A DNA stretch of 64,000 nt from the NCBI GenBank assembly GCA_965649265.1, contig CBFGKC010000001.1:190613-254612 (forward strand), in the 5' to 3' direction. Shown one piece after another: positions 1,487 through 28,910 of the stretch. A program made the translations under genes and the position numbers. This DNA is from a candidate division WOR-3 bacterium. GTDB lineage: Bacteria; Hydrothermota; Tepidihabitantia; B3-TA06. Positions within the stretch are counted from its first letter, which is position 1. The number at the start of each line of letters is the position of its first letter. The notes below the pieces were generated by a model, which saw only the letters and a list, made by a program, of their open reading frames with translations, was not told the origin of the DNA and did not search any database.

Positions 1487-4345
1487 ATGAAGATCCTTTT
1501 GAGGTCCTTGATTTTAGTCTCGATTATCCTGCCCGTACTGGTTTACGGGTACGAGGGCGGTTCCGTTGCATGGAAGCAAGCCCCGACAGAGGCGACCGGC
1601 TGGTATTGGATGTACGATGACGCGGAGGCAACCCCTCCGTTTTCGACTCCGATAATGCCGGCTCTTCCGGCATGGGACAGCAGTATTGTAACCAACGGTG
1701 CAAAGGTCCCTCCATATGGAGATCGTCCCTATGGTTACGTTCTTCCTGACTCGTTCTGGTTCTACAGTATCTGGTATACGCCGGGGAAGAAGCTTTACAT
1801 AGGTTCAGACGGCTGGCTCACCTTTGACGCGTCGGTCGAGCCCGACGGTGCGCCTACACCTCCACAGAAAACTCCTGCAATACCGCAGCCGGACGCTCCT
1901 AACGAGCTTTTCGCGGCTCTCTGGGCCGATTACAACCCATCGCTTACTCAAGAGCCTACCAGCACAAACCGCGTGTGGTATTTATATGATTCACAGACTA
2001 AGACAATCAAAGTTCAGTGGAACCAGATCAAGAGTGCCTCCGGGCCCGGCGTTTACACGTTCCAGGCATGGCTGCAGCTCGGTGGTCAGAAATACCTCGA
2101 CCAGCTTGGTTCCTGCGGCGTAATATTCAGCCGTCACTATATTCACTTTCTTTATGGCTCGGCCACTCCGGGGTGGACCGCCGACAACGGCAAGACCGGA
2201 ATCGAGAACCAGGACGGCACCAGGGGTATACTTTACGCCGGGACGCTGGCCAACGGCCGCGTGATCCGTGCCGGTTACAAGAAGGCTTTCGCGCACGACG
2301 TTGCCGCTTACGAGTTTCTTGGGCCGGGGCCTATGGTGCTCAGGTGGACTTATCACAATGTCGCCCTCGTTCTCGCCAACCTGGGAAACGACGCTGCACA
2401 ATTTACGGCCAAAGTGGACATATACAATTTAGAAAACGACTCCCTGGTATACCACCAGTCGCTTGGAACTATCTCGTTGTCACCGGGGAGAACGGACACC
2501 TTTGCAGATCTCCCGGATTGGAGGCCGGGTGAAATCGGAAGCACTTATGAAAAGAGACTTATTGTCGATCTGGCAAACGACGAGTGCCGTCAGAACGATA
2601 CTTTGAAGAAGAATTCGTTCGTTCACTGCGACGACACGCTGGGTTACGACTGGAATTTCAACGATGTAAGCCCCGGCCCCGACTTCTTTTGGTTTACAGG
2701 TTGGGGCTACCCCAATGACTTCAGTTTTGCGTTCTACGGCGTATCCGGCGGTCTTTTCACCGGCGGGCGTGTGTATCTGGAGACAAGTTACTGGGGGTAT
2801 CATTGGATTCCTTCCAAGTTCGTCCTTTCGGAACCTACGTCGGGCTGTGGAGCGACCTCAACTGCGAACATAATCGCCACCTTTCCCATTCCAGCGTGGA
2901 CATCCAACGGTCCTAACGCCGGATGGAACAACGCAACCTTCCCCGTTTCCGGCATATACGTTCGGGGCTCGAGCCCAGGCAATATATTTGCAGGCCTTAC
3001 ACCTAAGGACGGTTCCAATTATTCGACGGTAAACCTCTACGGCATGAAAACCTGGCCTGGGGCACATGCCTGTTACCTTGGCGGTGGTCCCGGCCGCGGC
3101 GCCCTTATCAACGGTTCCTTTTCCTGGGGCGGCTATGGCGAAAACGGAAATCCCGACAACTACTATACTCCGGCTTGTGAGCTTATCGGCCATCTAGTGT
3201 TCGGCGGCTACCCGCTCTCTGTAAAGCCCGGACCCCCGAGTTTCCTTGATGAACCGCACGATATAACCGCCTGTGAAATGACTAACCCAGGCTCAGAATA
3301 TCTCGAAGACGGCGTTCCTGTTACTCCCCAGATCGCGATAGCCAATATCGGCCTCGAGAAGGAACCCGAGACCGGCTTCTTTCCGGTCAAGTTCTTTGCC
3401 GTTGATGTAGCGACAGGCGAGACCACTTTTACAGATTCATCACTCGTATCGAAAATCGGCTGGCTCGGGAATCAATCCGATGATCCGGACACGCTCAACG
3501 TTTCCATGAATTCCTGGACGCCGGAGGGGAGATGCGCGAAGGTTGCCGACGGCGGCCCTTTCGTGGAGCTTGAACTCATCGGCCTCGTTCACCTCGGCGA
3601 GGTCGGGCCTGACGAATCCGACCACTGCCCGTACAACGACACCATTCGGCGTATCGTGACCGTGCTTCTTGCCCATGACGTCGGCGTGACGAACGTAACT
3701 GTTGATCCTGATCCGAATATCTATCCCTGCAAGTACTCTGTTGGCACTTCGGTGTTTGTTACAGCGACGGTCGAAAACTTTGGAATCAATCAGGAACATG
3801 ACATCCCGGTGAAGCTTGAGATCGTAGACAAAACCGCAGATCCTGACACGCTTGTCTGGCAGAACATCCAAACAATCGCTACCCTTGACTGGCGCGGCAA
3901 CGTCCTTAATAATCCCTACACTACGGAGGTGTACTTTCCAGCCTTCACGATATCTGATCTCAGCTGGCTCGCATTTACTTGCATGACCGAGCTTGAGGGT
4001 GATCTTTGTCCTGATGATGATATCTTCAGTTGGATCTGCTGGGGAGGTGTAGAGGAGAACATCGGTATCCAGGAATATTCTCTCGAGGTGCTTTCACAAT
4101 CACTTGCCGATCACGTTGCCTTAAGATTCACGGTACCCCGCTCCTCATGGGTAAAGCTCTCCATTTTCGACATAAACGGAAGGTTCGTCCGAACCATCCA
4201 GAACGATCCACTCGATCCCGGCTACTACACGCGCGCGTGGGACGCTCGCGACAACGCGGGCCGAAAGTGCCCGGCAGGAATCTACCTCGTCCGCATGGAG
4301 TCGGAGGGGTTCAGCTCGACTAAGAAAGTCGTGATATTAAATTAA
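1487..4345 (+). CDS. Large exported multidomain protein with CARDB/Ig-like modules and CTD (paralog 2)
   Basis: RBS GGAGGAG then ATG 1487; signal peptide MKILLRSLILVSIILPVLVYG; N-terminal domain shared with paralog 3; ends IFDINGR...WDARD...AGIYLVRM...KKVVILN. Confidence 0.88.
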   Translation: MKILLRSLILVSIILPVLVYGYEGGSVAWKQAPTEATGWYWMYDDAEATPPFSTPIMPALPAWDSSIVTNGAKVPPYGDRPYGYVLPDSFWFYSIWYTPGKKLYIGSDGWLTFDASVEPDGAPTPPQKTPAIPQPDAPNELFAALWADYNPSLTQEPTSTNRVWYLYDSQTKTIKVQWNQIKSASGPGVYTFQAWLQLGGQKYLDQLGSCGVIFSRHYIHFLYGSATPGWTADNGKTGIENQDGTRGILYAGTLANGRVIRAGYKKAFAHDVAAYEFLGPGPMVLRWTYHNVALVLANLGNDAAQFTAKVDIYNLENDSLVYHQSLGTISLSPGRTDTFADLPDWRPGEIGSTYEKRLIVDLANDECRQNDTLKKNSFVHCDDTLGYDWNFNDVSPGPDFFWFTGWGYPNDFSFAFYGVSGGLFTGGRVYLETSYWGYHWIPSKFVLSEPTSGCGATSTANIIATFPIPAWTSNGPNAGWNNATFPVSGIYVRGSSPGNIFAGLTPKDGSNYSTVNLYGMKTWPGAHACYLGGGPGRGALINGSFSWGGYGENGNPDNYYTPACELIGHLVFGGYPLSVKPGPPSFLDEPHDITACEMTNPGSEYLEDGVPVTPQIAIANIGLEKEPETGFFPVKFFAVDVATGETTFTDSSLVSKIGWLGNQSDDPDTLNVSMNSWTPEGRCAKVADGGPFVELELIGLVHLGEVGPDESDHCPYNDTIRRIVTVLLAHDVGVTNVTVDPDPNIYPCKYSVGTSVFVTATVENFGINQEHDIPVKLEIVDKTADPDTLVWQNIQTIATLDWRGNVLNNPYTTEVYFPAFTISDLSWLAFTCMTELEGDLCPDDDIFSWICWGGVEENIGIQEYSLEVLSQSLADHVALRFTVPRSSWVKLSIFDINGRFVRTIQNDPLDPGYYTRAWDARDNAGRKCPAGIYLVRMESEGFSSTKKVVILN

Positions 4346-23557: not shown

Positions 23558-24343
23558 CTGCAGATTACGATCCTTTCGTGCTTGCCCGAGTATCTGGGAA
23601 GCCCCCTTTCAGAGGGTCACGTAAGGATCGCTCAAGAGAAAGGGTTGGTGGAGGTGAAAGTAGTAAATGTGAGGGATTATGCGCAGGATTCGTATCGTAC
23701 GGTAGACGACGAACCCTACGGTGGAGGAGGAGGGATGGTTCTGAAAGTAGAGCCTGTGTGGCGGGCACTCTTCTCCCTGGGGGCCTTTAATGAGGAGGGT
23801 GAGAGGGAAAAAGACAATAAGGGTAGTCTACCGCAAGAGAAACCCTGGGTTGTGTTGCCTACACCAAAGGGTACAAGGCTGAGGCAAGATGATTTTGAAA
23901 GGCTAAGCACAAAAGGTCATCTCGTGTTTCTCTGCAGCCGGTACAAGGGGATAGATGAACGCATACGCGAGATGGTCGACGAGGAGTGTTCGCTTGGAGA
24001 TTACGTTATCGGCGGCGGCGAGGCTGCTGCGATAGTAATGATAGAAGGAATAATTCGACTCCTTCCAGGAGTAGTTGGTGCGCAAGAGTCCATAGAAACA
24101 GATTCATACACGTCTGGACTTCTTTCGGCACCGACTTATACGAGGCCTGAGGAGTTCAAAGGCAAGCGTGTTCCCGAGGTCCTGTTGTCGGGGCATCATG
24201 CCCGAATTCAAAGCTGGCGACGCAGCCAGGCTCTGGCGTTGACCTTAAGGCGCAGACCGGATTTGCTCGCGGCAGCCCAGCTTAGCGATGAAGATAAAAA
24301 ATTGCTTTCGGAGGTTATAGGTGAACAAACTCGTAGAGATTGA
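23558..24343 (+). CDS. trmD: tRNA (guanine37-N1)-methyltransferase
   Basis: VDDEPYGGGGGMV, SLGDYV, YTRP, VPEVLLSGHHA; probable CTG start at 23558 after GGAGG gives MQITILSCLPE. Confidence 0.93.
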   Translation: MQITILSCLPEYLGSPLSEGHVRIAQEKGLVEVKVVNVRDYAQDSYRTVDDEPYGGGGGMVLKVEPVWRALFSLGAFNEEGEREKDNKGSLPQEKPWVVLPTPKGTRLRQDDFERLSTKGHLVFLCSRYKGIDERIREMVDEECSLGDYVIGGGEAAAIVMIEGIIRLLPGVVGAQESIETDSYTSGLLSAPTYTRPEEFKGKRVPEVLLSGHHARIQSWRRSQALALTLRRRPDLLAAAQLSDEDKKLLSEVIGEQTRRD

Positions 24344-24791
24344 AAAAGGTCTGCTTCGCTCGGAACTGCCCTCCTTTGGTCCCGGGGATACTGTCAAGGT
24401 CTCCTTCCACGTCCACGAAGGGAAAAAAGAAAAGGTGCAGGCGTTCCAGGGTGTTTGCATAAAGATACACGGTTCGGGGCCTAACAGGTCTTTTACGCTC
24501 CGGAAGGTTTCTCAGGGTATCGGTATCGAGAGGATATTCCCTCTTCACTCACCAATGCTTGAGAAGATTGAGGTCGTGCGTTTGGGTAAGGTTCGTCGCG
24601 CCAGGCTGTACTATCTGCGTGACAAGGTAGGAAAGGGCCTGGCCATCAAGGAAAGGATCATCAAAAAAGATCCTTCGACTGCAAAGAGCAGGAGAAAAAC
24701 AGCAAAACCCGTAACACCCGTAACAGTGGATTCCCCCAAGGAGGCAGTAGATGCTCAGGAATCTGGACCTCCAGGCGTGGCGGAGGGTTAG
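24321..24791 (+). CDS. rplS: 50S ribosomal protein L19
   Basis: FGPGDTVKV, FQGVCI, GIERIFPLHSP, GKVRRARLYYLR. Confidence 0.96.
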   Translation: MNKLVEIEKGLLRSELPSFGPGDTVKVSFHVHEGKKEKVQAFQGVCIKIHGSGPNRSFTLRKVSQGIGIERIFPLHSPMLEKIEVVRLGKVRRARLYYLRDKVGKGLAIKERIIKKDPSTAKSRRKTAKPVTPVTVDSPKEAVDAQESGPPGVAEG

Positions 24792-25386
24792 CCTTCTTTG
24801 CGGGGTTGATGAAGTGGGCCGGGGGGCGCTTGCCGGGCCGGTTGTGGCCGCGGCAGTCGTACTTCCGCAAGGGTCAGAGATTCCCGATGTCCGGGATTCA
24901 AAAAAACTGACTCACCGCAAACGAGAAGAACTCTTTCAACTCATTGCCGCAAAGGCACTGGGTATTGGAGTGGGATTCATCCCACACGATGAAATAGACG
25001 AAACCGATATCCTTCGCGCCGCCCTGAGGGCGATGCGCAGGGCCTGCGAGCGTCTCGCCTTGCGCGTTGAACCCGATCTCGTTTATGTCGATGGAACCTA
25101 CGAGATACCGGACCTTCCGTGGCCGCAGGAACCATATCCTCAGGCTGACGCAAACTCGATGTCCGTTGCAGCGGCCTCAATCATTGCAAAGGTTCTAAGG
25201 GACCGGTACATGTCGCAGCTTGACTCTACATATCCCGAATACGGATTTGCAAGGCACAAGGGATACCCCACGCGTGAGCACGTCGAAGCTCTTCGCCGCA
25301 GAGGCCTTTCACCAATACACCGCCGCACGTTTCGTCCATGCGTGGAGTGCAGTGAGGTAGAGGTTCACGAAATAAAGATAGACTAG
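24751..25386 (+). CDS. rnhB: Ribonuclease HII
   Basis: GVDEVGRGALAGPV, DSKKL, VAAASIIAKV, HKGYPT, HRRTF. Confidence 0.95.
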   Translation: MLRNLDLQAWRRVSLLCGVDEVGRGALAGPVVAAAVVLPQGSEIPDVRDSKKLTHRKREELFQLIAAKALGIGVGFIPHDEIDETDILRAALRAMRRACERLALRVEPDLVYVDGTYEIPDLPWPQEPYPQADANSMSVAAASIIAKVLRDRYMSQLDSTYPEYGFARHKGYPTREHVEALRRRGLSPIHRRTFRPCVECSEVEVHEIKID

Positions 25387-25415
25387 TACCTGTACTTGTA
25401 GTTCACTAATTGCAG

Positions 25416-25511
25416 GAGGGGGGATTAGTCTTTCTGAGGGAGATAGTCTCAACCGGAGGTGCGGTTTTCAGAAAGGACTATTAATTTGCAGCCTTGATCC
25501 CTCTCTCGCCA
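25416..25511 (+). ncRNA. Candidate structured RNA or tRNA-like remnant
   Basis: GAGGGGGG can pair 8 bp with CCTCTCTC followed by G-CCA; internal stem TAGTCTTTCTGA/TCAGAAAGGACTA encloses two small hairpins; no T-arm or anticodon arm recognisable. Confidence 0.3.
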
Positions 25512-25548
25512 ATATATCCGGGTGATTTCTGAGTATTGAGACTAAACG

Positions 25549-25576
25549 TTGACATGTTTCTTTTTCCGAGTAGGCT
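25549..25576 (+). promoter_or_regulatory. sigma-70-type promoter (N16) upstream of repeat array and tRNA-Ser
   Basis: TTGACA-N16-TAGGCT. Confidence 0.65.
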
Positions 25577-25611
25577 TCGCTCTTAGAACGGAATATCGAA
25601 TAAATATGGAT

Positions 25612-26097
25612 GAAAAGCTAGCGCGAGGGTCGGCTGGCGCTGATGCGACAACGTGAGAGATTTGCGAAAGGTTAGTCTTCGCAAAGCGACCGTGACCGGA
25701 CAAGTCACTAGAAAGATCAGAACAGGCCAGCGGCTGCAATGCGTTGGTTACCGGATAAGTCATAAGAAAAAAGAAGAGGTTAGCATACAGCTTCCAGCTG
25801 GAGCTAATAAGACAATTAGGAAAAAGAAAAAAAGAAGCATATCGTTCGCAAGGCGGCGCTAACACGACAAGTTGTTTGTGATATTAACGAGAGGTTGGCG
25901 TTCACAGAGCGGCGATAATACGGCAAGCCGCATGATAGATGCGAGGTTAGCGTACGCAGAGCGACGATAACACGACAAGCCGCAGGATGTATGCGAGGTT
26001 GGCGTACGCAGAGCGACGGTAACACGACAAGTCGCAGGATGTATGCGAGGTTGGCGTACGCAGAGCGACGATAACACGACAAGCCGCTTCGCGACTT
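25612..26097 (+). repeat. Tandem array of about 9 degenerate ~52-bp units abutting tRNA-Ser(TGA)
   Basis: Exact 52-bp period for units at 25889, 25941, 25993, 26045 (GCGAGGTTRGCGTACGCAGAGCGACGRTAACACGACAAGYCGCAGGATGTAT); more diverged units at about 25833, 25774, 25721, 25666, 25612. Confidence 0.88.
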
Positions 26098-26183
26098 GGA
26101 GGGTTAGCGTAATGGCAACGCAGCAGACTTGAAATCTGCCGCCCCTTGACCGGGGCTTGGGGGTTCGAGTCCCTCACCCTCCG
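26098..26183 (+). tRNA. tRNA-Ser(TGA)
   Basis: GGAGGGT/ACCCTCC acceptor, GCAGA-CT TGA AA-TCTGC anticodon arm, long variable arm, GGGGG-TTCGAGT-CCCTC T-arm, G discriminator; CCA not encoded. Confidence 0.93.
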
Positions 26184-26187
26184 TGTG

Positions 26188-26222
26188 CCCCAAGAAGGTA
26201 CTTTGTACCTTCTTGGGGTTTG
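26188..26222 (+). terminator. Terminator after tRNA-Ser(TGA)
   Basis: CCCCAAGAAGGTAC-ttt-GTACCTTCTTGGGG followed by TTTT. Confidence 0.85.
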
Positions 26223-26231
26223 CTGCCAATA

Positions 26232-26258
26232 TTGACATTCCCGATTTCTTCATATAAT
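26232..26258 (+). promoter_or_regulatory. sigma-70-type promoter (N15)
   Basis: TTGACA-N15-TATAAT. Confidence 0.65.
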
Positions 26259-26299
26259 CAATACTAACTCATAACTAACCAACTACCAAGGAGGTATAA

Positions 26300-26686
26300 A
26301 TGGATCAAAACCCTGTGATCCCGTCCTCAACAGATCCCATGCAGAAGATACGCTACAGCATAGAAAAAACCCAGGGCTGGCTGAAATTCCTTGGGATTCT
26401 TTCCATTATCGGCGGCGCCGTTCAGGCGATAACCCTCGTTGGCATAATTATAGCATGGCTGCCCATCTGGCTCGGCATCATTATGACGCAGGCAGGATCG
26501 AAAGGCAAGGATTATGCCGAAAAAGGTACCATAGAAGATCTCGTCGAGTACAATGACAAACTCAGGAACTACTTTACCATCTACGGCATACTTGCAATAA
26601 TCGGACTCATCGCCGGTGTTCTCGGCGGCATCGTAATGATTATTCTTGCGATAACCGGGGCCTTTGCCGCATCACGTTTCTTCTGA
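26300..26686 (+). CDS. DUF5362-family membrane protein
   Basis: RBS AAGGAGG; GWLKFLGILSIIGG...IAWLPIWLG...LRNYFTIYG pattern, about 3 TM segments. Confidence 0.8.
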   Translation: MDQNPVIPSSTDPMQKIRYSIEKTQGWLKFLGILSIIGGAVQAITLVGIIIAWLPIWLGIIMTQAGSKGKDYAEKGTIEDLVEYNDKLRNYFTIYGILAIIGLIAGVLGGIVMIILAITGAFAASRFF

Positions 26687-26709
26687 CAGCCAAATCGGGA
26701 TCGAATATT

Positions 26710-26734
26710 AAGGGCGTCTTTGGACGCCCTTTTT
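26710..26734 (+). terminator. Rho-independent terminator
   Basis: AAGGGCGTC-tttg-GACGCCCTT followed by Ts. Confidence 0.85.
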
Positions 26735-26810
26735 CTTTTTGGGGAGTTGGGGTTGACAATCGACGCATAAATCAGTCTAATCCTGATCGAGCAACGAAAG
26801 GAGTAAAAGC

Positions 26811-27266
26811 ATGGATAGCGTTCATCCCGAAAATATGAAGGAGCTCTTCAGAAATACCATATACCGTTCAAAGGGCTGGATTACGGGGCTGGGTTGGCTG
26901 GCTTTGGCCTACGGTATCCTGTCTATTTTGAGAGTGGGGGTGTCAACGGCAACGATTTTTGGTTTCACGGGTGCCTCATCACTGACTTATCCTTTAATTA
27001 TCAGTGCCGGGTCCGGGTTCCTTGGTTTGGTCATCAGCTCATTGTTGATACCGATGGGAATAGTTCTCATCAATGCAGGAGGGAATCTCAGGAACTACCT
27101 CGCTGCCGAGGACTTCTCCGCGGTTATTGCCTTTCACGGGAAGATCAGAACCTCGGCGATACTTGCCGTGAGTGTGCTGGTAGTTGATGTCTTTTCAAAC
27201 ATCATAACCGCTTTTCTGTATTACGCAGTAGCGATTATGCCTGGGCTTACAGGATTTGGTGATTGA
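26811..27266 (+). CDS. DUF5362-like membrane protein (divergent paralog)
   Basis: RBS AAGGAG; KGWITGLG...LINAGGNLRNY pattern resembles the upstream gene; about 3 TM segments. Confidence 0.7.
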   Translation: MDSVHPENMKELFRNTIYRSKGWITGLGWLALAYGILSILRVGVSTATIFGFTGASSLTYPLIISAGSGFLGLVISSLLIPMGIVLINAGGNLRNYLAAEDFSAVIAFHGKIRTSAILAVSVLVVDVFSNIITAFLYYAVAIMPGLTGFGD

Positions 27267-27289
27267 CTTTTTTCGATGCTCAGTATAAT
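27263..27289 (+). promoter_or_regulatory. sigma-70-type promoter (N15) of tRNA-Ser(GCT)
   Basis: TTGACT-N15-TATAAT, 8 nt before the tRNA. Confidence 0.7.
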
Positions 27290-27297
27290 CCCTTCTG

Positions 27298-27386
27298 GGA
27301 GAGGTGGCCGAGTGGTCGAAGGCGACCGCTTGCTAAGCGGTTGTACGGGTAACACCGTACCGTGGGTTCAAATCCCACCCTCTCCG
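27298..27386 (+). tRNA. tRNA-Ser(GCT)
   Basis: GGAGAGG/CCTCTCC acceptor, AGTGG D-loop, ACCGC-TT GCT AA-GCGGT anticodon arm, long variable arm, GTGGG-TTCAAAT-CCCAC T-arm; CCA not encoded. Confidence 0.95.
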
Positions 27387-27395
27387 TATATAAAA

Positions 27396-27432
27396 TGTTC
27401 TCGGGATTTTTAAAAGGAAAATCCCGAGAACA
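27396..27432 (+). terminator. Hairpin after tRNA-Ser(GCT)
   Basis: TGTTCTCGGGATTTT-N7-AAAATCCCGAGAACA perfect 15-bp inverted repeat; no U-tract. Confidence 0.55.
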
Positions 27433-27455
27433 AATCTTAATTTCTTCGGAGTAAA

Positions 27456-28910
27456 ATGTCACAGGGAAATAACACAATGTCTGGATCGAAAAATGGTGAA
27501 ATCAGGGTTCGCATTGCCCCCTCGCCGACAGGTGCCATACACGTCGGTCTTGCGCGCTCGGCACTCTACAACTATCTTTTCGCGCGCAAGCACGAAGGAA
27601 CATTCGTCCTTCGCATTGAGGATACGGACGTTGAGCGCTCGACCCAGGAATCAGCCGACGCAATCGTCAAAGGACTTGCCTGGCTCGGTATCACATTCGA
27701 CGAGGGACCTTACTATCAATCCCAGCGGCTCGACATCTACCGCAAGTACGCAGATGAACTCATCCGCAATGGCCACGCTTACCGCTGCTACTGCAGCGCG
27801 GAGCGTCTCGAAGAGGAACGCAAAAAGGCTGAGGCCGAAAAGCGGGCGTGGAAATATGACAGACATTGCCTCAATCTCTCCGACGAAGAAAGAAAGAGCC
27901 TTGAATCCGCAGGTGTAAAGCCTGCGATCCGCCTCCTCATCCCCGAAGGCTCCACAACATTCTCCGACCTCATTCACGGTGACGTCACACGCGAGCACAA
28001 GGACGTCGAGGATTTCGTCATCCTGCGCTCCAACGGCGTGGCAATGTACAACTTTGCCGTCGTCGTAGACGACTATGAGATGAAAATCAGCCACGTTCTG
28101 CGCGCGGTCGAACACATCTCAAACACCGCCAAGCAGGTTCTTCTCTACAACGCTTTCGGCTGGCCGATTCCGGAGTTTGCCCACCTCCCCCTCATTCTCG
28201 GCGGGGATAAAAAGAAACTCTCCAAGCGCCACGGCGCCATGTCGCTCGAGGAGTTCCGTTCCCAGGGTTATCTCGCCGACGCGATGGTCAACTTCCTCGC
28301 CCTGCTCGGATGGTCTCCGGGCGAGGACCGCGAACTCATCTCCCGCGAGGAACTCGTAAATCTATTCACCATTGAGCGCATCAACACATCCAACGCGATA
28401 TTCGACATGGCCAAGCTCTCATGGATGAACGGCGAGTACCTGCGCAAGCTCGCGCCTGACAGGCTCCTTTCTGAGTTCAACGACTGGCTTTCCTCGCAGT
28501 CCATCACACTTACCGCCGATCCTTCCCTGGTCGACAAGGCCCTTCCGCTCGTCGCCGAACGCTCGCGCACGCTCGCAGAGGTCTACGACTCCCTCCTCCC
28601 TTACATATCCAACGATCTGGTTTACGATGAAGAAGGCCTGAAAAAGCATTTCCGCAAGGATCTCGCAACTGTCCACAAACGCCTCACCCTTTACCGCGAG
28701 CGTCTTGCGGCCCTGCCGGAGTTCACGAAGGAGGCCGCAGAAGAAACGCTCCGTCTCCTCGTGGAAGAACTCGGCGTCAAGCCGGGCGAACTCATCCACC
28801 CCGTTCGCCTGGCGGTCACGGGCCGCACCGTGGGGCCCCCCCTGTTCGACTGCCTCGACCTCCTGGGCCGCGAGCGCGTGCTCGCGCGCCTGGCGAAACT
28901 GCCGGAGTAA
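27456..28910 (+). CDS. gltX: Glutamate--tRNA ligase
   Basis: RIAPSPTGAIHVG (HIGH), LRIEDTD, KKLSKRHG (KMSKS), CYC zinc site, anticodon-binding domain; start could be 27477. Confidence 0.96.
   Translation: MSQGNNTMSGSKNGEIRVRIAPSPTGAIHVGLARSALYNYLFARKHEGTFVLRIEDTDVERSTQESADAIVKGLAWLGITFDEGPYYQSQRLDIYRKYADELIRNGHAYRCYCSAERLEEERKKAEAEKRAWKYDRHCLNLSDEERKSLESAGVKPAIRLLIPEGSTTFSDLIHGDVTREHKDVEDFVILRSNGVAMYNFAVVVDDYEMKISHVLRAVEHISNTAKQVLLYNAFGWPIPEFAHLPLILGGDKKKLSKRHGAMSLEEFRSQGYLADAMVNFLALLGWSPGEDRELISREELVNLFTIERINTSNAIFDMAKLSWMNGEYLRKLAPDRLLSEFNDWLSSQSITLTADPSLVDKALPLVAERSRTLAEVYDSLLPYISNDLVYDEEGLKKHFRKDLATVHKRLTLYRERLAALPEFTKEAAEETLRLLVEELGVKPGELIHPVRLAVTGRTVGPPLFDCLDLLGRERVLARLAKLPE

Follow-up and report, generated by a model that had tools for sequence, protein, structure and literature searches.

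What is a tandem array of repeats doing between a promoter and a tRNA gene? The question is raised by a 64,000-nucleotide stretch of the genome of a candidate division WOR-3 bacterium (contig CBFGKC010000001.1, positions 190,613 to 254,612; the whole stretch is called the window here, and positions are given in its own numbering), in which repeats of about 52 bp lie directly upstream of the gene for tRNA-Ser(UGA). Bacterial tRNA 5' leaders are usually regarded as short throw-away sequence. An original prediction, made by a model from the letters of the sequence, had described about nine units between a promoter and the tRNA, in register with the tRNA 5' end, and had taken them for the age record of repeated duplications. 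We found that the feature is real, conserved and lineage-specific, and that it is partly as first described. As an answer to the question we tentatively propose, at somewhat less than even confidence, that the array is a selected, structured leader of tRNA-Ser(UGA), which would have been built by unequal exchange at the tRNA 5' end and would act in cis on the folding and 5' processing of the precursor.

Tandem Repeats Finder (TRF) reported a 52-bp period with 3.8 copies and 90% matches at 25891-26087. A repeat search detected a 36-nt core in seven in-register copies, matching the reference copy at 64-75% (25669, 25724, 25836, 25892, 25944, 25996 and 26048), and at an eighth in-register position, 25776, only a 13-nt match to the core was present. 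Successive copies of the anchor GGTT[A/G]GCGTA lie 52, 52 and 53 nt apart, the last of them being nt 5-14 of tRNA-Ser(UGA). Because this spacing runs into the gene, the tRNA occupies the exact start of the next, tenth unit, its first ~15 nt forming the final partial repeat, and the predicted register with the tRNA start is borne out. To avoid circularity, a covariance model (R2) was trained outside the window, on 18 units from relatives with zero window sequence; it omitted three of the 21 available relatives' units, the variant tRNA-proximal ones. When R2 was run over both strands of the 64 kb with filters off, all seven matches at E<=10 lay inside the array and in register. Three were strong, at 25937 (48.4 bits), 25989 (44.2 bits) and 26041 (41.1 bits), and four weak, at 25885 (20.7 bits, E=0.005), 25770 (19.2 bits, E=0.014), 25662 (16.2 bits, E=0.097) and 25830 (10.9 bits, E=3.1). 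Two units parsed by hand, unit 1 (25607) and unit 3 (25717), were not recovered in this unfiltered search of the window. Of the nine units claimed, therefore, four are clear (25885-26093), three are supported by the relatives-only model (25662, 25770, 25830) and two are doubtful (25607, 25717). A second model, R1, matched all nine units at the tRNA-Ser(UGA) locus and nowhere else in the bacterium's own genome.

Similarity had been said to fall off toward the promoter, leaving a ladder of ages. The distal units are indeed diverged: identity to unit 9 was 0.83-0.85 for units 7-8 and 0.74 for unit 6, and only 0.42-0.56 for units 1-5, while the pair quoted as an example, 25666 against 25941, is identical at 30 of 43 positions. 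However, R2 scores and identities to unit 9 together indicate a step between young proximal and old distal copies rather than a gradient. The distal units had also been expected to stand out from shuffled sequence. With 500 shuffles, identity to unit 9 was better than shuffled only for units 6-8 (0/500) and marginally for unit 2 (18/500); units 1, 3, 4 and 5 did no better than shuffles.

Single-unit folds gave one stem-loop for each unit of 49-59 nt. The 5' arm, GGUUAGCGU, pairs with a 3' arm, ACGRUAAC(C), across a small variable inner stem-loop (loops seen: AGA, GAA, GCAA, CUCAA, GUAA), and an unpaired CGACAAG-like tail and a linker follow. The 5' arm copies the tRNA from about -2 to +15, and the copied stretch that pairs is about nt 3-15, GGUUAGCGUA (for example, ATGAGAGGTTAGCGTAC against TTGGAGGGTTAGCGTAA). 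Because it pairs with such a copy, the 3' arm is antisense to tRNA nt 5-13, and two inverted repeats, I2 and I6, likewise link the 3' half of units to the tRNA start. Similarity to the tRNA past nt 15 was absent in 38 of 39 units. In the remaining one, at 3371-3424 of the metagenome locus L092, tRNA nt 17-38 can be aligned at 17/21 positions (p=0.001 against shuffles; GGTAACGCGGC-GAATTGAAA vs GGCAACGCAGCAGACTTGAAA), which hints at re-templating from, or descent from, a longer tRNA 5' half.

In a set of 44 units, of which 41 are distinct, taken from 13 loci, 83.9% of the 466 cells of the unit helix can pair, vs 25.6-35.3% with slid partners; over the two counts made, the ranges were 82-84% and 26-36%. 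Five of the 12 helix pairs vary on both sides, in 22 cells against a shuffled mean of 10.9, and none of 500 shuffles reached 22; the count was made on related sequences, which can yield such numbers without structure. The helix was written by hand from the single-unit folds, so these counts are biased toward it, and RNAalifold returned no structure for the first MAFFT alignment of the Ser units. Old units retain the hairpin with altered sequences, as in unit 4 of the window and unit 1 of L007. A variant unit (…GGUGCGAAGCACC GAUGCGRCCUCC…) bearing CCUCC was also seen, next to the tRNA in L004, L007 and L009; in L010 and L011 it lies promoter-proximal, at the far end of the array, and lacks the 5' arm.

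Within the window all units are on the forward strand. The doubtful, degenerate unit 1 (25607..25661) was matched by R1 only (33.3 bits, from a model trained with unit 1), and 259 of 500 shuffles reached its identity to unit 9. Unit 2 (25662..25716), the reference copy of the repeat search, is old and retains the hairpin GGUUA.../...UGACC. Unit 3 (25717..25769), the other doubtful and degenerate one, was found as the repeat-search copy at 25724 (64%) and has no R2 match; it still folds GGCCAGCG/GCGUUGGUU in RNAfold, has CCGGAUAAG in common with unit 2 and is 60% identical to it. In the old unit 4 (25770..25828) the outer stem GGUUAGC/GCUAAU is retained and the inner stem differs, being CAGCU/AGCUG; its folding z-score is -2.9, and none of 200 shuffles folded as well. 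Unit 5 (25829..25884), also old, has lost the outer stem and folds about as shuffles do, its repeat-search copy matching at 67%. Unit 6 (25885..25936) lies within the TRF array and is 74% identical to unit 9. The young units 7 and 8 (25937-25988 and 25989-26040), also within that array, are mutually 90% identical and form local hairpins both in the minimum free energy (MFE) structure of the leader and in single-unit folds. Unit 9 (26041..26097) has as its tail a terminal hairpin at the tRNA junction.

The arrays were found across the family. Eight of 11 family species genomes carry one to nine units, each array directly upstream of tRNA-Ser(UGA): nine in the bacterium's own genome (G000), six in G010, three in G007 with one more at a contig start, three each in G006, G005 and G002, two in G003 and one in G008. 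In G009 the contig terminates inside a unit, G001, of the same genus, has a leader without units, and in G004 the tRNA region was unmatched. A pattern scan of metagenomes gave 44 stretches, of which five carry units, all at tRNA-Ser(UGA) and on contigs that include ones of 34 kb and 244 kb; one of these arrays (L092) has units of 49-50 nt, which are homogeneous near the tRNA and degenerate farther away. The match to the tRNA start, whose loss in relatives would have told against the original prediction, is kept. No units were present in 121 other genomes of the class or in a phylum sample of 147 genomes outside the family. Pattern matches alone did not suffice: R1 matched none of the nine (of 13) genome stretches without an adjacent tRNA-Ser(UGA), nor 39 of the 44 metagenome stretches. 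Two of these unrelated pattern matches, L052 2440-2700 (Moorena records) and L098 8520-9000 (a metagenome contig), turned out to be 21-22-bp satellites containing GGTTAGCRTAC with no tRNA nearby.

Could the near-identical proximal copies be an artefact of assembly? Short-read contigs break at the arrays in several genomes, and no contig from four runs of one study crosses the window array unbroken. In a public contig from a strain of 95-99% similarity, position 25949 is joined to 26054, so that 104 bp, equal to two units, are skipped; this may reflect either a genuinely shorter allele or collapsed repeats, and the window assembly is the sole source for the number of near-identical proximal copies. 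However, the three proximal units mutually differ at five or more positions, the older units are unique sequence, and like arrays occur in independent assemblies, the 34-kb and 244-kb contigs among them. We therefore consider an artefact very improbable. A practical warning follows all the same, as such arrays break short-read assemblies right beside tRNA genes.

Arrays had also been sought at other tRNAs. For each of the genome's 43 tRNAs, the 500 nt upstream were screened for exact matches to the first 26 nt of that tRNA. The longest self-copies belonged to tRNA-Leu(CAG), with 13 nt, and tRNA-Ser(UGA), with 10 nt; those of the other 41 tRNAs were of 9 nt or less, and downstream controls held no self-copy of 8 nt or more. 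In the bacterium's own genome the tRNA-Leu(CAG) leader has at least two units of ~73 nt (G000:C15:64188-64357, minus strand; G000:C22:1-260; loci L110, L111 and L122), divided over two contigs whose ends share 47 nt within a unit. Each runs from the 13-nt tRNA copy (exact in one, with a single mismatch in the other) through a GUGC-GAA-GCAC hairpin to an antisense arm. Copies of the 13 nt with at most two mismatches also precede the gene in G001 (2), G002 (2), G003 (3), G006 (3), G004 (1) and G005 (2). Leader units of this kind are present in the own genome and in seven of eight informative family genomes, and related arrays across the family have units of 58-109 nt. In G007 the hairpins are retained and the copy is absent, the G008 contig begins 12 nt upstream of tRNA-Leu, and at both of two outgroup loci Leu copies are absent. 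RNAalifold, applied to seven of the 10 Leu units (one identical and two degenerate units were omitted), paired the copy (nt 6-11) with the antisense arm GCCAUC around two hairpins, predicting 24 pairs, six of which show compensatory changes. Two G-U pairs are invariant in 7/7 units, which argues for an RNA of the tRNA's strand; for the Ser units, G-U stands in 37 cells and A-C in 24. A genus-specific difference at nt 5 of tRNA-Leu is mirrored in its copies. At both genes, then, a tRNA copy, one or more inner hairpins and an antisense arm are repeated in tandem and in register, so that the arrangement is characteristic of the family at two class II tRNA genes, whose unit sequences are unrelated.

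These arrays might nevertheless be a non-functional by-product. Slippage or unequal exchange, seeded by 10-16 nt of identity, would create the units, the hairpins would be kept because a free antisense arm harms the tRNA (a constructive-neutral or 'addictive' arrangement) or would be made by template switching, and the leader would simply be discarded. In keeping with this, copy number spans 0 to 9 and is not constant between nearly identical backgrounds, distal units decay, contigs break at the arrays, the genome has other tandem arrays of 40-65 bp away from tRNAs (21 TRF rows with a period of at least 20 and at least 2.5 copies), and the comparable repeats at plastid trnF have been interpreted as pseudogenes in the account of PMC3786074.

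The comparison of two clades within one genus bears on this. Between them the neighbouring rnhB gene has an overall identity of 87-91%, its third codon positions match at 75.7%, and the spacer from rnhB to the promoter is 70-74% identical. By contrast, the stretch from the promoter to the first unit is 91-100% identical, the tRNA 95-97%, and the best-matching units 89-100%, two of them being identical over 57 and 61 nt. The choice of best matches inflates the unit identities somewhat, and recombination between the clades is a possible contributor, but the contrast is large even so. Constraint is not uniform, as loci with 98-99% identical flanking rnhB carry 1, 2, 2, 3 and 3 units. It is difficult to reconcile a by-product with units, promoter and 5' leader so much better conserved than synonymous and spacer sites, with compensatory changes in Ser and Leu units alike, or with a copy-plus-antisense design kept family-wide at two tRNA genes in unrelated sequences; a useless antisense arm should also be lost through mutation. 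We hold the by-product explanation to be unlikely. The same evidence tells against a mere age record of neutral duplications, since the units keep a compensated hairpin and are conserved between species far above neutral sites.

Units and tRNA evolve in concert. At L009 and L091 the tRNA D-stem is GCAU/AUGC rather than GCGU/ACGC, and this change is mirrored in the unit arms, where the A (G12A) occurs in 8/9 arms there vs 4/31 at eleven other loci; in one L091 unit the hairpin partner changed along with the arm. Such concerted change would be expected if unequal exchange or conversion used the 10-16 nt of identity. Together with the variable copy number, this sequence exchange upholds the idea of duplication anchored on the tRNA 5' boundary. 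The pattern of homogeneous proximal and decayed distal copies recurs in L092, L009 and the Leu arrays. Because the tRNA end cannot decay, it keeps renewing the units next to it, which explains the polarity without any special mechanism. In this respect the locus makes visible how a functional RNA gene and the repeats beside it evolve in concert.

How might such a leader work in cis? Unequal exchange or slippage between units and the tRNA 5' end would supply the units, and selection on the tRNA would fix its 5' end, so that proximal units stay homogeneous and distal ones decay. Transcription would start at the conserved promoter and run through the array into the tRNA. A free antisense arm could seize tRNA nt 5-13 and so keep the cloverleaf from forming; the tRNA copy upstream of it, being transcribed first, would take up the arm instead. 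Each unit would on this account be a self-neutralised 'anti-tRNA' module, a three-strand alternative-pairing device like the expression platform of a riboswitch. The modules, along with the terminal hairpin, may then set the timing and manner in which the precursor folds and is cut by RNase P of type A, whose RNA is encoded in the genome, and RNase P would finally remove the entire leader. Pairing of a leader near the cleavage site alters the kinetics of bacterial RNase P in the work described in PMC9433436, and sequestering the region of the cleavage site works as a synthetic RNase P switch in that described in PMC7897497.

Predicted folds of truncated leaders agree with this scheme at about half of the loci. 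When the leader was cut to 30-48 nt, leaving the arm and removing the copy, the acceptor-stem probability dropped to 0.00-0.40 at seven of the 13 unit-bearing loci, and a leader of 60-80 nt restored it to at least 0.83 in six of these seven; folds with leaders of 230 nt or more were noisy, as were those of the Leu precursors. The junction points the same way. In the window a terminal hairpin is formed by CAAGCCGC (26080-26087), the loop UUC and GCGACUUG (26091-26098), whose final G is nt 1 of the tRNA, with a folding energy of -8.3 kcal/mol. A hairpin with its 3' strand ending at -1/+1 (up to +5) was present at 15/15 family loci, the unit-free G001 included, in six distinct stem sequences whose folding energies ranged from -6.0 to -21.7 kcal/mol and z-scores from -1.4 to -6.9. 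In L004, L007 and L009 the CCUCC-bearing variant unit forms this hairpin, a stem of 12 bp with leader -7..-1 plus tRNA nt 1-5, which covaries among genomes. All four outgroup junctions folded no better than shuffles.

Several observations weigh against a cis-acting leader. Truncated leaders left the tRNA intact in the window genome, L003, L005, L085 and L092 (acceptor probability at least 0.88), so that in the window genome the switch would be energetically weak, and the outcome of truncation partly follows by construction from the self-complementarity of the units. The same-genus relative G001 lacks units and in G008 there is a single one, so that neither a given copy number nor even the presence of units is indispensable, and as the distal window units are near-random, not every unit is maintained. 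Loops and tails are conserved at 93-100% though pairing alone would not need it, which fits a specific partner better. Template switching at quasi-palindromes in the DNA can mimic compensatory change, and the excess of G-U over A-C in the Ser units is slight, favouring the sense strand only weakly. Finally, the window junction hairpin ranks only third in stability among the leaders of the genome's 43 tRNAs.

In its fullest form the cis-acting leader would be a natural riboregulator: tRNA-mimic and anti-tRNA modules would decide the folding and RNase P cutting of tRNA-Ser(UGA) and tRNA-Leu(CAG), the number of modules would tune the effect, the tRNA gene would renew them, and the released leader may persist as a stable RNA. 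We regard this extended version as possible but rather doubtful. The idea of tRNA decoys in the original prediction survives in altered form, with the tRNA copy of each unit as the pairing partner of the anti-tRNA arm.

The conserved loops and tails lead to another explanation, that the leader, once released, is a stable multi-hairpin product acting in trans, either as a sponge or decoy for a binder of the 5' part of class II tRNAs or as a dosage-tunable small RNA, with copy number setting the dose. Functional RNAs from tRNA spacers exist, such as 3'ETS-leuZ. Conservation extends beyond the stems (units 89-100% vs 76% at synonymous sites) and to the promoter and 5' leader (91-100%), modular repeats of variable number resemble sponge RNAs, and the -1/+1 hairpin of all 15 family loci would become a protective 3'-terminal hairpin after the RNase P cut. 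However, a candidate partner was found for none of the units. Neither strand of the rest of the genome offered an extended antisense target; the two 15-mers shared with it are A/G-rich and of low complexity, and the 15 shared 14-mers are close to a chance estimate of ~10. CAGGAUG, a CsrA-type motif, is confined to two window linkers, the relatives' units having none, the inner loops vary freely, and no Rfam family matched. An action in trans seems to us an unlikely explanation.

The promoter at 25549..25576 was read from the sequence on the forward strand as -35 TTGACA (25549-25554), a 16-nt spacer and -10 TAGGCT (25571-25576). It places a probable transcription start near 25583 and predicts a leader of ~515 nt. 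The original prediction had named this promoter, and relatives lend it support, with TTGACA-N16-TAG[G/A]CT upstream of the array or leader in L003, L005, L007, L008 (TAAACT), L009, L010, L011 and L092; a consensus promoter scan, on the other hand, called no site in 25200-26400, the 25549 promoter included. The array might instead act as DNA, each unit adding either a weak promoter, whose -10-like element would be a TAATAT of the linker, or a dyad bound by a protein, and so multiplying transcription of the tRNA. In one genus the linkers read GTAGTAATATGAAAGG, with a good -10 hexamer placed like the -10 of a second promoter ahead of the first unit, and promoter motifs are duplicated in the plastid trnF arrays described in PMC3786074. 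Yet the linkers of the window (CAGGATGTATGCGAGG) and of L092 lack a TAnnnT box, the -35 positions match TTGACA at only 1-2 of 6 positions, and that same scan was empty, while compensated inner stems of variable length and the invariant Leu G-U pairs point to RNA. We give an action at the DNA level hardly any weight.

Among known systems the closest case is the pseudogene arrays of plastid trnF(GAA), on a comparison of their published features with ours. In Brassicaceae, Solanaceae, Asteraceae and others, one to seven tandem partial copies of 32-73 bp are described 5' of the functional gene, after sigma-70-type promoter motifs, with copy number varying by taxon (PMC3786074). The original prediction had known of no 5'-side equivalent, and this has to be corrected, because the plastid arrays are in print. 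Like them, the WOR-3 arrays consist of tandem units homologous to the adjacent tRNA and following its substitution, lie between a promoter and an intact gene, and vary in copy number among relatives; slipped-strand events or unequal exchange may be the origin of both. In the account of the plastid copies, however, the anticodon domain is best kept, acceptor residues are rare and the copies are pseudogenes, whereas copying in the bacterium is restricted to nt ~3-15 (Ser) or 1-13 (Leu). The bacterial units, moreover, carry an antisense arm in a conserved hairpin, affect two tRNA genes and are under a constraint of their own (89-100% vs 76% and 70-74%, with compensatory changes), though the distal units of the window decay.

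A bacterial precedent lies on the other side of the gene. The repeats at E. coli tyrT, which give rtT RNA, are ~178-bp units containing the tRNA 3' end; they are co-transcribed with the tRNA and released by processing. Both kinds of repeat contain an end of the adjoining tRNA, but ours is on the 5' side. Membership in the rtT family, presumably RF00391 in Rfam, was rejected, as cmscan gave no match to it at E<=10 and the array lies 5' of the tRNA.

The units may share the logic of riboswitch platforms, in that one strand, the antisense arm, could pair with either of two partners, the tRNA copy or the tRNA 5' strand or leader; such two-partner pairing is what the truncation folds predicted at 7/13 loci, the window genome not among them, and the design recurs at tRNA-Leu. 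Unlike riboswitches, the Ser units are plain hairpins with variable loops and no evident aptamer, no parallel is known for their repetition in as many as nine tandem copies, and the RNase P example reported in PMC7897497 is man-made. T-box riboswitches were rejected for want of an Rfam match, and because UCN is present in some inner loops only (CUCAA, CUCGU), others being AGA, GAA, GCAA and GUAA.

Tandem near-identical structured modules in variable number are also known from the CsrB/RsmZ sponges and from ToxI of type III toxin-antitoxin systems, unlike which the present units are derived from, and in register with, a tRNA. Neither candidate held. The GGA motif is not conserved, which together with the rarity of CAGGAUG and the lack of an Rfam match speaks against a CsrA sponge, and in a Pfam search no endoribonuclease toxin was found downstream, where the tRNA is followed by DUF5362 membrane proteins, rnhB lying before the array. 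A CRISPR array was rejected because the units are contiguous and homologous over their full length with no unrelated spacers, as had been predicted. For tRNA gene fragments in prokaryotes, the passages of PMC9897764 concerned with them name as sources only mobile-element integration and CRISPR. Attachment (att) sites are alike in placing partial direct repeats of a tRNA beside the intact gene, again as described there. Those repeats flank kilobase-sized integrase elements, whereas here the 5' copies are separated by structured segments of 40-90 nt; with copies 49-59 nt apart, housekeeping neighbours and no mobile element, an att site was rejected. The tRNA fragments of integrating elements are reportedly 3' parts as a rule (Williams 2002). 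In the literature searched, with subscription journals outside its scope, we found no published description of such bacterial leader arrays.

ARAGORN placed tRNA-Ser(UGA), which has no encoded CCA, at 26098..26184 on the forward strand (Rfam tRNA, 60.1 bits at 26098-26183), and it is the single tga gene of the genome. Downstream, inverted repeat I3 at 26188..26221 (forward strand) forms a terminator-like hairpin with a 14-bp perfect stem, a 3-nt loop and a following TTTG; the terminator scan made no call there because the T run is too short. In a cmscan search of 24500-28000 against 4227 Rfam families, only two tRNAs scored above gathering scores. The surroundings (23582-25386 and 27456-28910) hold trmD, for the tRNA m1G37 methyltransferase, the RNase HII gene rnhB and, past tRNA-Ser(GCU), the glutamyl-tRNA synthetase gene gltX; there is no integrase among these neighbours, and the two longest open reading frames in the array had zero Pfam matches, in agreement with what had been noted from the sequence. 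Between tRNA-Ser(UGA) and tRNA-Ser(GCU) the family has one to three paralogous genes for small DUF5362 membrane proteins (window 26300-27266; L104 7788-9239; L009 836-1225), while in other families of the class the two tRNA genes are adjacent, 0-130 nt apart. Elsewhere in the own genome, tandem arrays of 44-65 bp in 3-4 copies were seen at C2:191403-191550, C5:130989-131164, C8:53926-54100, C3:162514, C6:166928 and C7:135299; three of these have a common core, GGGGTCCCC...ACGTTTGGGGT, and by comparison of TRF calls with the tRNA list none adjoins a tRNA gene.

To our knowledge, it is mainly engineered constructs that have shown control at the level of precursor folding or of cleavage by RNase P. 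In the present case an entire uncultured family has retained long leaders of modular build at two tRNA genes, each present in a single copy, and in these leaders a copy of the tRNA 5' end is paired with its antisense, and this design suggests an undescribed way to shape or control tRNA precursors. If the leaders are released, they would be a new source of structured small RNAs. If the riboregulator outlined above is real, the synthetic RNase P riboswitch would have its first counterpart in nature, and cis-regulatory RNAs would gain a new class. And if the modules gate folding or processing, they would add a new layer to the control of tRNA supply in these bacteria.

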